A model generated the notes under the pieces. It saw only the letters and a program-made list of their open reading frames with translations. It was not told the DNA's origin and made no database searches. This document shows, piece by piece, positions 11,511 through 14,262 of a stretch of DNA of 64,000 bases (the stretch's first letter is position 1; each line of letters begins with the position of its first letter). The DNA comes from Candidatus Daviesbacteria bacterium (GTDB lineage Bacteria > Patescibacteriota > Microgenomatia > Daviesbacterales > UBA10151): assembly GCA_016184225.1 (NCBI GenBank), contig JACPDA010000004.1, positions 538,763 to 602,762 of the forward strand, given 5' to 3'. The position numbers and the translations under genes were made by a program.

Positions 11511-11600
11511 TTTTAAAAGCAGATTGGGAGGCAGTTTGAAACTAGCTCTTTTTAATCCAAATGAGCTAAATTGTCAAGAGGTCAAATGCGGGTAATCTAT

Positions 11601-11630
11601 CAATATAAAACTTTGCAACAATTAGGAATT
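11601..11630. repeat. Island repeat C, copy 1 (preceded by a degenerate A-tail aaatgcggg)
   Basis: caatataaaactttgcaacaattaggaatt, which recurs at 12285..12314. Confidence 0.7.
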
Positions 11631-12005
11631 GGTTTGGGCTGAATCTTCTCTTGGTAAAGGTATAGTGCGTATGTTACTCCAAATACCTCTCCTAGTGTTC
11701 ATTATAACTGGTACTGTTGCTCCTTTACCACCCAAGAAGTCTTTATTATCGCTATATGCTTCATCACATTCAACCTCTATTGCTCTATCATTCTCCACAG
11801 GTGTTGATTTGACAGTACCAGGAAGCCAGCCTTTTTTAGTTCTGACCTCAACTCTCATTCCTGGAGAGAACTCTTCCCAACCCGTTTCAAAATCATCCAT
11901 TCCTGGATCATTCCAGTGATGTAATCCGCGTGTGGCCTCTGCTAAGGGGTCTTCTACTCCATAGTTTTCCTGGATTTCTTTAGGTACTCCACCATCTTCA
12001 GCCAT
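11622..12005 (-). CDS. Hypothetical acidic protein (island cargo)
   Basis: 127-aa ORF with no recognised motif. Its 3' end overlaps repeat C. Confidence 0.3.
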   Translation of the reverse strand: MAEDGGVPKEIQENYGVEDPLAEATRGLHHWNDPGMDDFETGWEEFSPGMRVEVRTKKGWLPGTVKSTPVENDRAIEVECDEAYSDNKDFLGGKGATVPVIMNTRRGIWSNIRTIPLPREDSAQTNS

Positions 12006-12092
12006 AATGTATATATACCATTTATAATCTGCGGTTGCAAATAAAGTTGAATTAGTAAGGATTAGGTTGTTGTAATAGCTTTAACTAATAAT

Positions 12093-12239
12093 TGCGGGGC
12101 CGACGGGAATACACGTCTCACTTCGTGAGAACGAACAGTCTTGTCCCTCGAAGATTCGGAACGACGCACTCCGATTCCCTAGCCAGCCTCTAGATTTGAA
12201 AAATCCGCTGCAAGAGCGGATATTTTCGAAATCTGCGGG
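12093..12239. repeat. Island repeat A, copy 1 (18-nt tRNA-Asp 3'-end mimic plus a 123-nt body)
   Basis: tgcggggccgacgggaat followed by acacgtctcacttcgtgag...atctgcggg. Near-identical to 14046..14192. Confidence 0.8.
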
Positions 12240-12314
12240 CTTAAGACTTCAAATTTTGAACACCTATATCAGAGTTTAATATACCAATACAAAACTTTGC
12301 AACAATTAGGAATT
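12238..12314. repeat. Island repeat B copy 1, fused to repeat C copy 2
   Basis: ggcttaagacttcaaattttgaacacctatatcagagtttaatataccaatacaaaactttgcaacaattaggaatt. The B part recurs at 13194..13261 and the C part at 11601..11630. Confidence 0.8.
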
Positions 12315-12333
12315 TCATCCTAAATACAGCTTG

Positions 12334-12960
12334 CTATACTTTCTCTAAACTTGTTTTTAAAGCTTGGGCAAGAAGACTTTCTAACATAATAGAATCATAA
12401 TTATCTGCTGCCTGCATAGCTCCAACATATTTATCCCTATCTTTTCCTGTCTCAGCTTTGATAGTTATTATGGGGAATCCTAAATTAAGAAGCAGAAGGT
12501 TAGTGAGCAAACGAGCAACTCTACCGTTATAGTCATTAAATGGATGAATCCAGACAAAACGATGTTGAAACCAAGCTAAAAGTGATATAAGTTCTGCTAA
12601 GAATAGTTCCTCACTTTGAGTTGGAGATAAATGTTTTAGTCTTTCTGCAAGATCATCACAAAGATTTTGTACAAGTTCAGGAACTCTACTAAAATATGGC
12701 GGTTCATATTCTCCAACAGTTACATCAATCTTTCTAAATTTTCCTGCCCAATCCGGAAATATAAAGCCGAAGCCTTCTTTGTGAAGATCTAAAATGATTT
12801 GAGGAGATATTTTAACTCTTTTATTACTGAGTTTAATGATATGTTGTTGAGCCTTTTTAATGCCTTTAGCCTCAAGCTTAATAAGTTCTGAGCGTGGTAA
12901 TATTCCAAAAGCGGTTTCTTTAAAACTTGTTGTAGATTTAGGTTTAGTAGATTTAGCCAC
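12334..12960 (-). CDS. Fic/DOC family protein (candidate FicT toxin)
   Basis: Fic motif variant HPFNDYNGRVAR (canonical HPFx[DE]GNGRxxR with G replaced by Y). GTG start inferred by the ORF tracker. Confidence 0.6.
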   Translation of the reverse strand: MAKSTKPKSTTSFKETAFGILPRSELIKLEAKGIKKAQQHIIKLSNKRVKISPQIILDLHKEGFGFIFPDWAGKFRKIDVTVGEYEPPYFSRVPELVQNLCDDLAERLKHLSPTQSEELFLAELISLLAWFQHRFVWIHPFNDYNGRVARLLTNLLLLNLGFPIITIKAETGKDRDKYVGAMQAADNYDSIMLESLLAQALKTSLEKV

Positions 12961-12985
12961 AGCACAATTGTAGCACAGTGCTTAG

Positions 12986-13171
12986 CTAAAAAAGAGATCG
13001 TACCTGTTTTCGAGAAATCTTCTCCCCTTCAAGACGCATAGTATGATAAATATCTTCAGGAAGAAGACTGGTTACATCTGGCTTTTTACGCATATTAAGA
13101 TAGCGTTTCCTAAAAGTTTTAAACGCTTGAATAAGACCTATATTTTTATTTACTAATTGAATCCTAGTCAT
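12986..13171 (-). CDS. Small ORF upstream of Fic carrying the (S/T)xxxE(G/N) inhibitory-helix motif (candidate FicA antitoxin, or a split N-terminus of Fic)
   Basis: 61-aa ORF containing TMRLEG (TxxxEG), 25 nt upstream of the Fic gene in a different frame. Confidence 0.4.
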   Translation of the reverse strand: MTRIQLVNKNIGLIQAFKTFRKRYLNMRKKPDVTSLLPEDIYHTMRLEGEKISRKQVRSLF

Positions 13172-13193
13172 AAAGATATTATAGCATACTTAT

Positions 13194-13261
13194 GGCTTAA
13201 GACTTCAAATTTTGAACACCTATATCAGAGTTTAATATACCAATACAAAATTTTGCAACAA
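13194..13261. repeat. Island repeat B, copy 2
   Basis: Direct repeat of 12238..12305, with one mismatch over about 66 nt. Confidence 0.8.
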
Positions 13262-13290
13262 CTCAATATAAGATCAGATTATGGTATAGT

Positions 13291-14023
13291 TTGAACATGG
13301 ATGATGAGGTAAAGCTGGGATTAGGCACAAAAGAAGTTGGCAATCCTGAGCCAGTTGATTATGGTAAAATTCTTGGAAATAATAGAGTTTTGTTCATCAA
13401 CGATAGCCACACCTCTCTTACAGACAAAGAAGCATTTAAAAAAGCTCTAGAGGAATTATCTAAGCTGGGTATTACTGATCTTGCTTTAGAAATGTTACCA
13501 AAAGGCTTTGATACTACAGATCCAGAAAAAGTAAGGCAATATTTACAGGATTATTGGGATGACAAGGGTCCTGGGGATGGGAGATAAATATTTTGAAATT
13601 TACTCTTTAGCTAAATCATTAGGGATGAATATACACGGATTAGATATTTCTAATGAGGAATATCTAGCCTCTAGTCAGTCAGCTACATTTGGTAAAAGGA
13701 ATAGACAGTGGGCGGAAATTCTAAAAAATAGATTAGAAGACAATCCAAATACAAAGGTAGTCGTCTTTTGTGGTGGATCACACTCAGGATATTATCCAGC
13801 TAGAGATAGAGCAAATAATATACTTGAAGCTTTAGGTTATCAATCAAGCTGTGCTTCATATTTTGGAGGAGATAATAATTTTCCGATTACAGATGGGGAT
13901 AAATTAATACAGGGTTTAATAAAATCAGGTGACCAGAAAGCTGGTTTTATGGTAGAGTTTAGGTCACCACGCAGACCAGCAGATTATATAATCTCCCCAG
14001 GCGACTCAATTGTCGCTAAATAG
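13291..14023 (+). pseudogene. TIKI/TraB/erythromycin-esterase-like family gene, apparently frameshifted (ORFs 13291..13587 and 13559..14023)
   Basis: RVLFINDSHTSLTDKEAFKKALEELSKLGITDLALE resembles the N-terminal motif of that superfamily, and VVVFCGGSHSGY a later motif. The two ORFs overlap by 29 nt in different frames. Confidence 0.3.
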
Positions 14024-14045
14024 GATTTGAACACTTTTTGTGCCT

Positions 14046-14192
14046 ATGCGGGGCCGACGGGAATACACGTCTCACTTCGTGAGAACGAACAGTCTTGTCC
14101 CTCGAAGACTCGGAACGACGCACTCCGATTCCCTAGCCAGCCTCTAGATTTGAAAAATCCGCTGCAAGAGCGGATATTTTCGAAATCTGCGG
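14046..14192. repeat. Island repeat A, copy 2 (abuts the tRNA-Asp 3' end)
   Basis: The 18-nt tgcggggccgacgggaat occurs at 14046 and again at 14188 as the true tRNA 3' end, bracketing the 123-nt A body. Confidence 0.8.
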
Positions 14193-14262
14193 GGCCGACG
14201 GGAATCGAACCCGCTATCTTCTCCGTGACAGGGAGACGTGATGACCGGTTCACTACGGCCCC
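14190..14262 (-). tRNA. tRNA-Asp (anticodon GTC)
   Basis: Reverse complement GGGGCCGTAGTGAACCGGTCATCACGTCTCCCTGTCACGGAGAAGATAGCGGGTTCGATTCCCGTCGGCCCCG. Anticodon loop CTGTCAC, discriminator G. Confidence 0.8.

Follow-up and report, generated by a model that had tools for sequence, protein, structure and literature searches.

Here we examine a 64,000-nucleotide (nt) stretch of the Candidatus Daviesbacteria contig JACPDA010000004.1 (assembly GCA_016184225.1, positions 538,763 to 602,762 of the forward strand), called the window throughout, in which the genome's only tRNA-Asp gene is the platform for an array of small gene cassettes. The host is a groundwater Candidatus Daviesbacteria with a tiny genome. 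The array occupies the slot between two backbone genes, one for a LysM-domain protein and one for a family-X DNA polymerase (PolX), and, judged by its sequence, the interval 11587-14262 is a series of five modules, each edged on both sides by a ...CCCGC/A core, where the slash marks the junction. We consider it fairly probable that the array was built by serial, orientation-specific and site-specific insertion at ...CCCGC/A through a recombinase acting in trans. Coordinates are positions in the window, the layout is given in the direction of the tRNA, which lies on the minus strand, and L-numbers (L006, L042 and so on) denote related loci in the comparison set. The features are listed below; A and CB are the two kinds of repeat described in the following paragraphs, aa stands for amino acids and ORF for open reading frame.

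14333-16108, plus strand: backbone gene for PolX with a PHP domain (Pfam; 53 related loci), kept on the other side of the slot from LysM
14278-14306, minus strand: sigma-70-like tRNA-Asp promoter (TTGAAT-17-TG-TAAAAT; consensus scan), 15 nt upstream of the tRNA 5' end
14189-14262, minus strand: tRNA-Asp(GTC) (ARAGORN; Rfam tRNA, 63.5 bits)
14048-14188, minus strand: A cassette, tRNA-proximal copy (homologues in L051 and L006)
13194-14047, minus strand: TIKI cassette (92.9% nt identity to L042, 86.5% to L029)
13291-14023, plus strand: ChaN/TIKI-like pseudogene, frameshifted
13194-13269, minus strand: CB copy 2, ending AAGCC without CGC
12235-13193, minus strand: FicA/Fic cassette (Pfam Fic, 4e-16; nhmmer CB, E = 5e-21; same gene pair in L085 at 73.5% nt identity)
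12986-13171, minus strand: FicA-like antitoxin, 61 aa, with TMRLEG
12334-12960, minus strand: Fic toxin, 208 aa (Pfam Fic, 4e-16)
12235-12313, minus strand: CB copy 1, ending AAGCCCGC
12094-12234, minus strand: A cassette, distal copy (99% identical to the proximal copy; the CB/A type of junction also in L006)
11587-12093, minus strand: last cassette, with the orphan ORF (bounded by homology of its flank to empty sites)
11622-12005, minus strand: orphan ORF, 127 aa (only sub-threshold Agenet/chromo matches)
10854-11510, minus strand: backbone gene for the LysM-domain protein (Pfam LysM, 2e-26), retained at this edge of the slot by all relatives (tblastn, about 35 loci)

Followed from the tRNA, the array passes from ...CCCGC into A, then through the TIKI cassette and its CB, the FicA-Fic cassette and its CB, the second A and the orphan-ORF cassette, which closes with a truncated C half and a CCCGC that meets the LysM promoter. 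The G+C content of the island is 0.30-0.36 versus 0.41-0.47 in the flanks. From these sequences we infer that the insertion point is the 3' end of tRNA-Asp, ...CGGCCCCGC/A. The 18-mer TGCGGGGCCGACGGGAAT, which is the tRNA end as it reads on the plus strand, occurs at exactly three sites in the 64 kb (12093, 14047 and 14188), for a chance expectation of 0.04. A first-pass annotation of this DNA had reported the same recurrence, and its three copies are exact, with the middle one at 14047 and not at 14046 as it had written. Its repeats A, which copies the tRNA 3' end, B and C are likewise real, with the extents given below. It had treated B and C as separate repeats, and they prove to be two halves of a single 79-nt unit; of its reading of the locus as serial or nested insertions or a cassette array, the serial cassettes stand and the nesting does not. 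What it had called a degenerate A-tail (11587-11592) is the CCCGCA core that closes the last cassette.

On the tRNA strand C precedes B, and together they make up the 79-nt element that we call CB, ATTCCTAATTGTTGCAAAGTTTTATATTGGTATATTAAACTTTGATATAGGTGTTCAAGATTTTTACCCTTCAAGCCCGC, the terminus of which (AAGCCCGC) resembles the terminus of tRNA-Asp (GGCCCCGC). B with part of C spans 87 nt that are 90% identical between 12219-12305 and 13175-13261 and identical over the central 66 nt, and C recurs at 11593-11630, at 12277-12314 and, in degenerate form, at 13233-13270. The first-pass annotation had proposed a search for further copies of its repeats; a profile built from the window's copies and run with nhmmer in a comparison of about 70 related loci returned 60 matches in 37 Daviesbacteria loci, so CB is a family and no local duplication. 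Of the 50 matches that have the tRNA 3' end on the contig, all 50 lie downstream of tRNA-Asp and point the same way as it does, and all 32 matches with both flanks fall within the LysM-PolX interval, which accounts for 67 kb (6%) of the 1.16 Mb compared. Scanning the JGI metagenomes for exact patterns, blind to context, gave 18 true CB loci, every one of them at the LysM-PolX/tRNA-Asp locus wherever the contig has flank markers (L085 and L093 have none). The same kind of scan of IMG/VR yielded no true CB match; a phage or plasmid source was rejected because patterns for CB, the A body and the tRNA end found only chance matches there.

The end of CB is CCCGC in 30 of 39 distinct full copies, and beyond it lies the next cassette or else precisely the sequence found behind the tRNA at empty sites. 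Within the 39-copy alignment the block AGGTGTTCnAnATTT is nearly invariant. As many as five copies occur in one array (L029), where they are divergent, at about 75-85% identity to the window's copy, so each cassette seems to have been acquired independently with its own CB. Within the C half is TGGTATATT, an extended -10 of the form also found in the window 6 nt ahead of the PolX, FicA and orphan-ORF start codons, and in six arrays of the same orientation (among them L051, L023, L042, L025 and L098) the region upstream of PolX is a terminal C half. The upstream half of CB may thus reasonably be taken as an outward-facing extended -10 promoter that would keep the displaced backbone gene expressed.

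Several other identities for CB were tried and rejected. It is not an internally deleted tRNA gene with its promoter, given that the C half is no closer to tRNA-Asp upstream regions than shuffled sequences are, nor a structured RNA or attC site, as RNAalifold found no consensus structure for the 39 copies and the window CB has a fold z of +0.55. A search of Rfam at gathering and at permissive thresholds returned no family for A, B or C. The idea that C copies the promoter native to PolX failed in that a significant match exists only where C itself is the terminal array element, and the B motif as an operator for LexA or another general regulator failed because neither the region upstream of lexA nor any other part of the window contains it. 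A near-match to the C core (15 nt with one mismatch, AAAATTTTGCAACAA) at 38633-38647, inside the ORF of a Crp-like regulator (38336-38956), is probably due to chance.

A is a module of 141 nt on the tRNA strand that ends in an exact 18-nt copy of the tRNA end, and its two occurrences form a repeat of 147 nt (12093-12239 versus 14047-14193) with 99% identity, the sole difference being T at 12153 versus C at 14107. The proximal copy contains a terminator-like hairpin at 14157-14175, which a generic terminator scan did not call, two or three small hairpins, an imperfect inverted copy of the tRNA 3' segment (GGCTGGCTAGGGAAT, 14128-14142) and the 18-nt copy of the tRNA end at 14047-14064. The distal copy is bounded on its left by CB1...CCCGC/AGATTTCG and on its right by the tRNA-end copy at 12093-12110. 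Both edges of the duplication therefore coincide with CCCGC/A cores, as would be expected from site-specific exchange and unlike a random duplication. The 123-nt body of A is restricted to this locus, with two copies in the window and single copies in L051 and L006, and analogous A-type modules are present in L037 and L038. All of them start with a terminator-like hairpin directly after ...CCCGC/A and finish with a copy of the host's own tRNA 3' end, which is exact in the window (18 nt) and in L037 (17 nt) and degenerate in L006, L038 and L051, the copy in L038 carrying the GTCAGT variant of its own genome. The A bodies of the window, L006, L051 and L038 include GGC(T/A)AGGGAAT, which matches ATTCCCGTCGGCC imperfectly in inverted form. 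This allows the module to fold into a bulged helix that has the tRNA-end copy as one of its strands; the RNA folds of A-type modules have z values from -2.3 to -3.3 (-2.4 for the window A), and folds with DNA parameters are not significant. In L051, the closest relative with a visible array, the same order of tRNA, A and a cassette with a "type-1" left end is found, so the proximal copy is probably the older one and the distal copy a recent duplicate. The suggestion that the A body could be a miniature non-autonomous element (a miniature inverted-repeat transposable element, MITE) was rejected, as A is confined to a single locus, with homologues only at that same locus in L006 and L051, has no terminal inverted repeats, and shows as its "duplication" 17-18 nt of the tRNA end. 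A is, on this distribution, a locus-specific mini-cassette.

A search with PolX against GTDB species representatives identified 53 related loci, the best 80% identical and most of them named Candidatus Daviesbacteria, which belongs to the Microgenomates within the Candidate Phyla Radiation. The arrangement LysM(-), tRNA-Asp, PolX(+) is a conserved backbone, within which the gap between LysM and PolX ranges from 168 to 6071 nt among 43 loci. An empty site in relatives, for which the first-pass annotation had recommended looking, does exist, and for both tRNA orientations: with a gap of 168-250 nt, tRNA-Asp adjoins either the LysM promoter (...CCCGC/A..TTTCCCCTCTTGACAA) or the PolX start codon (...CCCGC/ACCAAATGG). 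That annotation had also named an identical, unvarying locus in relatives as grounds for refutation, and the locus is instead hypervariable, with array content scattered on the PolX tree.

Cassettes are shared between species with sharply defined ends. One unit consists of a type-1 left end, a gene for 247 aa and CB. L049 has it behind the tRNA and L025 behind another CB, as the final cassette ahead of PolX, and the two versions share roughly 85-90% identity; the homology begins exactly at CCCGC/ATAGGCAC and stops exactly at the end of CB. The TIKI cassette of L042 is 92.9% identical to that of the window, yet the PolX of L042 is only 69% identical in amino acids and ranks below the eight best nucleotide matches (at least 71%). 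Units of HicB, HicA and CB recur in six loci, and a pair of DUF433 and PIN-like genes in three, with the DUF433 gene alone in a fourth, and the remaining cargo consists mostly of singletons (GIY-YIG nucleases, methyltransferases, an HAD hydrolase, NYN, patatin and many orphans). Every type of junction in the window (tRNA/A, A/type-1, CB/A, CB/cassette and C/LysM flank) recurs independently in other assemblies, with tRNA/A in L051, L037 and L038 and CB/A in L006.

The cargo of the window itself is compact. The TIKI cassette opens with a shortened type-1 left end (ATAGGCAC..AAAAGTGTTCAAATCC, 14024-14047), and the pseudogene recognized as TIKI-like in the first pass is indeed broken: compared with the intact homologue of 243 aa in L042, it has an insertion of 1 nt. 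The L042 homologue itself gives a weak Pfam match to Cofac_haem_bdg/Tiki. The Fic domain of the module named there was confirmed, and a 61-aa partner is encoded upstream of it. Fic proteins carry the motif HxFx(D/E)GNGRxxR, and FicA antitoxins the inhibitory motif (S/T)xxxE(G/N). The motif in the window's Fic reads HPFNDYNGRVAR, with Y where the motif has G, and the TMRLEG of the small partner presumably represents the inhibitory motif; a Fic domain with a small motif-bearing protein upstream, as found here, is the makeup of a class I Fic/FicA toxin-antitoxin pair. The cassette has a leaderless type of promoter, TGCTATAAT-N6-ATG. The last cassette has the promoter TTGCAA-N17-TGGTATATA-N6-ATG and finishes with a truncated CB, the C half only (11593-11630), followed by the core CCCGCA (11587-11592), which adjoins the native LysM promoter flank TTTGACCTCTTGACAA directly; that flank is homologous to the sequence after the tRNA in the empty sites L005, L022, L048 and L037. 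At PolX (14316-14335), FicA (13172-13189) and the orphan ORF (12006-12023), TGnTATAnT is followed 6 nt on by the start codon with no Shine-Dalgarno sequence, which suggests that their mRNAs are leaderless.

Two small modules and two matters of assembly were noted in the related loci. A left-end module of about 85 nt (ATAGGCACGAAA...hairpin...GCTAAAAGTGTTCRAGTCCnGT), whose hairpin varies with compensating changes and whose last part resembles a decayed T-arm and acceptor of tRNA-Asp, recurs in L003, L006, L009, L011, L025, L026, L027, L029, L049, L073 and L081 and at 14024-14047 of the window. A 27-nt mini-insert, CGTTCAGTTTACATGAACGTGGCCCGC, follows the tRNA in L018 (about 7877-7903, minus strand) and L042 (6848-6874), comprising a hairpin and a GGCCCGC end, and akin hairpins occur in L012 and L038. 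The metagenome-assembled genome (MAG) CAYOOO01 holds two versions of the PolX/tRNA-Asp locus on separate contigs, L037 (PolX 61% identical to the window's) and L051 (80%), and this bin probably mixes two strains or species. Many "binchicken" third-party annotation (TPA) MAGs with this synteny (L003-L006, L012, L015, L017, L018 and others; PolX at most 80% identical) bear the title "uncultured Gammaproteobacteria bacterium", which is probably either a mislabeling or a stand-in name.

In the mechanism that we propose, small modules devoid of a recombinase gene would enter the extreme 3' end of tRNA-Asp (...CCCGC/A) in one orientation. The tRNA-distal end of every module is a mimic of the tRNA end, either the 79-nt CB or, in the A type, the last 17-18 nt of the host tRNA, and this end would serve as the element-borne attachment site. 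Because the end of the module mimics that of the tRNA, each insertion would regenerate the ...CCCGC/ target, so that later modules could enter at the tRNA or at any junction, co-oriented arrays could grow, and excision, shuffling and passage from species to species would become possible. The enzyme would be encoded elsewhere and would most likely be a tyrosine recombinase whose short overlap is at (G)CCCGC(A); the toxin-antitoxin cassettes (Fic, HicBA, PIN-like) probably stabilize the array.

A number of results weigh against this mechanism. Searches with phmmer across the window and all related loci, using XerD, Cre and lambda Int as queries, found none in the window or the Daviesbacteria loci, and a search of the window and the PolX-derived loci with Hin gave no match; the positive control for tyrosine recombinases, the unrelated contig L108, was recovered at 8e-10. 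Pfam searches of 71 cargo ORFs, five of them from the window, and of every substantial window ORF turned up no array recombinase. The junction is not perfectly fixed, in that nine of the 39 CB copies end otherwise (CCATA, CATTT and others), and CB lacks any conserved hairpin or inverted repeat such as usually flanks a crossover site. The match of the B half to the T-arm and acceptor of the tRNA is only moderately better than that of shuffled sequences (8 to 117 of 2000) and is suggestive only, and a generic promoter scan did not call C as a promoter. Most of the comparison data are short-read MAGs, and Logan contigs from the window's own samples all end 30 nt into a repeat or within the shared tRNA, which leaves only the original assembly to give the order of the two A copies. 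No excision product was observed. The alternative arrangement, a circle of 1954 nt together with a shorter array, would imply the same cassette biology.

The first-pass annotation had found no integrase in the window and had advised looking just beyond it. Neither an integrase nor a resolvase nor a DDE transposase was found in the window or in any array, and roughly 0.8 Mb of related loci likewise contained no integrase. The window does encode an unrelated member of the Y1_Tnp family, an IS200-like Y1 transposase-family protein of 215 aa at 57721-58368 on the minus strand (Pfam 27.2 bits, cutoff 23), 43 kb from the island. In the region of this gene (57683-58400) the hairpin repeat CACCTCGAAGGTGTAAAGCTAAA stands on both sides, resembling a repetitive extragenic palindrome (REP), CACCTCGAAGGTG, and further REP-like copies, single or paired, lie at 40-54, 20222-20245, 35498-35540 and 35757-35795, one of them in a GatA/amidase ORF. 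These hairpins are absent from the island and from all related loci. The gene and its hairpins look like a separate system of a REP-associated tyrosine transposase (RAYT) and REP or REPIN (REP doublet forming hairpins) elements in a genome of the Candidate Phyla Radiation (CPR). Single-strand transposition of the IS200/IS605 (HUH Y1) type, PATE- or REP-like, places elements 3' of a fixed target of 4-5 nt, always in one orientation, and uses subterminal hairpins at both ends that are recognized by a Y1 transposase. As for such transposition at the array, the polarity and the fixed CCCGC target would fit it; CB is without a hairpin, and the Y1 hairpins do not occur in the island.

Other origins of the locus were weighed as well. 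It might be a flexible island that resembles a minimal mobile element and is kept up solely through natural transformation together with homologous recombination, with the flanks and CB as portable homology, CB in a promoter or regulatory role and no dedicated recombinase. The conserved backbone flanks speak for this, as do the failure to find a recombinase near the arrays, the use of the C half as PolX upstream region in six arrays and the lack of recombination-site symmetry in CB. We nevertheless judge it unlikely, since the cassette shared by L049 and L025 has only about 5-10 nt of left-hand homology and a breakpoint that is exact at CCCGC/, and a cassette that can follow either the tRNA or CB with a clean breakpoint is not easily accounted for by homologous recombination alone. 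Such exchange also leaves unexplained the polarity of 50 in 50 and the tRNA-end mimic of CB, the A duplication is edged by CCCGC/A on both sides, and the best-conserved part of CB (AGGTGTTCnAnATTT) falls outside the -10 region and is found in no other part of the window, the sequence upstream of lexA included. That the modules are immobile fossils of integrase-carrying islands, tycheposon- or prophage-like, which entered tRNA-Asp serially and then lost their integrases and most of their genes, appears distinctly improbable. Arrays are indeed punctuated by direct repeats of the tRNA 3' end and by decayed tRNA-like fragments such as GTGTTCGAGTCCnGT in type-1 left ends, and Prochlorococcus islands show tandem integration that pushes outward and leaves scattered partial tRNAs (bioRxiv 10.1101/2020.12.28.424599). 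However, not one integrase or integrase fragment was found among the 37 CB-bearing loci, the junction is a conserved 79-nt family and not a set of independently decayed host tRNA ends, modules of 0.14-1 kb are far below the size of known islands, and near-identical cassettes across species together with the 99%-identical A duplication argue for recent movement.

A true integron, or a cluster of attC sites lacking integron-integrases (CALIN), in which CB and A would be attC sites for an IntI-type integrase, is very improbable, even though the co-oriented cassettes of one or two genes have a homogeneous repeat between them and carry many toxin-antitoxin and orphan genes, and even though the imperfect inverted repeat of the A type, with its bulges, could fold like an attC. 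No IntI or other tyrosine recombinase is adjacent, CB has neither an R''/R' pair (RYYYAAC/GTTRRRY) nor a conserved fold, the insertion point is a tRNA 3' end and not an attI, conserved sequence is confined to one side of every junction, and the DNA-parameter folds of A are not significant. It is just as hard to credit a simple local duplication, or an assembly artifact at a hypervariable locus in a mixed population. In an assembly graph the 147-nt direct repeat is equivalent to a 1954-nt circle and a shorter chromosome, the window's samples assemble only into pieces that end 30 nt inside the repeats, a single-nucleotide polymorphism (SNP) is all that separates the two A copies, and the tRNA is common to co-occurring genomes. 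Against this, each junction type of the window is independently present in other assemblies, and the version with a circle and a chromosome would still imply the same cassette biology. Serial insertion at ...CCCGC/A by a recombinase in trans is the explanation that we favor.

The tRNA-Asp gene is variable in its own right. Together with about 20-27 nt upstream (the -10 region) it occurs in either orientation between the same LysM and PolX flanks, on the PolX strand in L004, L008, L010, L014, L021 and L033 and on the opposite strand in L005, L018, L022, L032, L048 and the window. Both orientations occur interspersed across the PolX tree, even where the tRNA sequence is identical, so the gene has flipped repeatedly; arrays are always on the 3' side of the tRNA whichever way it points. 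No inverted repeats were found that would explain the flips. At the same-orientation empty sites L004, L010 and L014 the ATG of PolX lies 4-6 nt past the tRNA 3' end, which suggests that PolX is there co-transcribed with the tRNA and released by tRNA processing.

Other insertions concern the tRNA gene and its neighbors. An insert of about 200 nt, possibly a group I intron, splits tRNA-Asp at the anticodon loop (35/36) in L006 (6970-7246, minus strand), L011 (2177-2452, minus strand), L079, L089 and L099, and the split genes are missed by ARAGORN. Directly 5' of tRNA-Asp and on the same strand, six loci (L049 at 5782-6729, minus strand, L003, L020, L011, L006 and L015) have an ORF of about 210-320 aa with an N-terminal helix-turn-helix and a homing-endonuclease domain, LAGLIDADG_3 (Pfam 7.7e-17). 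A small GIY-YIG nuclease gene sits between a partial 5' tRNA copy and the complete tRNA-Asp in L025 (4977-5371), L029 (462-866) and L027 (7043-7443), where the partial copy runs from position 1 to about 58, its break in the T-loop coinciding with the start of the 18-nt A-type repeat; GIY-YIG genes are also found just 3' of the tRNA in L042, L012, L097/L098 and L084/L121.

Among known systems, integrons and CALINs share with this locus the co-oriented cassettes of one or two genes on one fixed platform, the repeat ends of about 80-140 nt, the toxin-antitoxin and orphan cargo and the sharing across species. The differences are that no IntI is present, that the platform is a tRNA 3' end and not attI, that CB has neither an attC hairpin nor R''/R' boxes, and that, unlike the cassettes of integrons with their single Pc promoter, those described here carry their own promoters, with CB apparently aiming one outward. 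The array is thus co-oriented with repeat-ended cassettes, as in an integron, and has neither the IntI nor the attC folds of one; the locus behaves like an integron but is not an integron. Minimal mobile elements of Neisseria place differing whole-gene cassettes between the same two conserved genes and move by homologous recombination in the flanks. Unlike this locus, they have no polar junction repeat and no tRNA-end mimic. The ssrA-specific genomic islands of Dehalococcoides lie in tandem at the 3' end of ssrA, with short direct repeats of the gene end between them, and encode their own ssrA-specific recombinase. By contrast, no recombinase gene is present at the locus studied here. The Dehalococcoides islands offer a further parallel (PMC3146451).

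The cis-mobilizable elements (CIMEs) of streptococci are similar in being flanked by att sites, lacking recombination genes, growing by tandem accretion and depending on an enzyme in trans (review PMC5704250), and each cassette here likewise lies between ...CCCGC/ cores with no recombinase gene. Streptococcal CIMEs, however, adjoin or derive from a known integrative and conjugative element (ICE) or integrative and mobilizable element (IME) that supplies the integrase (PMC5704250), and no such helper was found here. Tycheposons (bioRxiv 10.1101/2020.12.28.424599) and Islander-type islands (PMC4383910) resemble the locus in their tRNA target, the partial tRNA copies at their ends and their hypervariability, and in tycheposons, as here, the genome is streamlined and newer elements displace older ones outward. 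The distal end bears a directly repeated tRNA 3' fragment, as it does in Islander islands, and the decayed copies in L038, L006 and L051 match the host variant. Those islands are kilobases long and defined by an integrase, whereas the modules here are 0.14-1 kb, no integrase lies inside the island, and none was found in any of the 37 CB-bearing loci; unlike in those islands, the junction is a conserved 79-nt family that shares about 5-7 nt with the tRNA (18 nt in the A type).

Genomes of CPR bacteria measure about 0.8 Mb and have few recognized mobile elements, and how they exchange accessory genes is poorly understood; a literature search found no integrons, tRNA islands or arrays of this kind described for CPR bacteria or Daviesbacteria. 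The tRNA-Asp locus is a compact, rule-bound hotspot in such a genome, with one tRNA gene, one polarity, one junction repeat and a cargo that turns over from species to species, and, whether or not an enzyme is found, it explains why short-read assemblies break in these regions. We suggest only tentatively that Daviesbacteria possess a gene-capture platform of their own, in which the tRNA-Asp 3' end would stand for attI, CB and A for attC, and an unlinked recombinase for the integrase, a functional equivalent of the integron with an independent origin and the main route of accessory-gene exchange in these minimal genomes; on this view that recombinase could also account for the repeated flips of the tRNA gene. 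Should a trans-acting recombinase be found, this would be an integron-like system that arose independently, and CB would become a simple marker for harvesting the flexible gene pool of the lineage from metagenomes.

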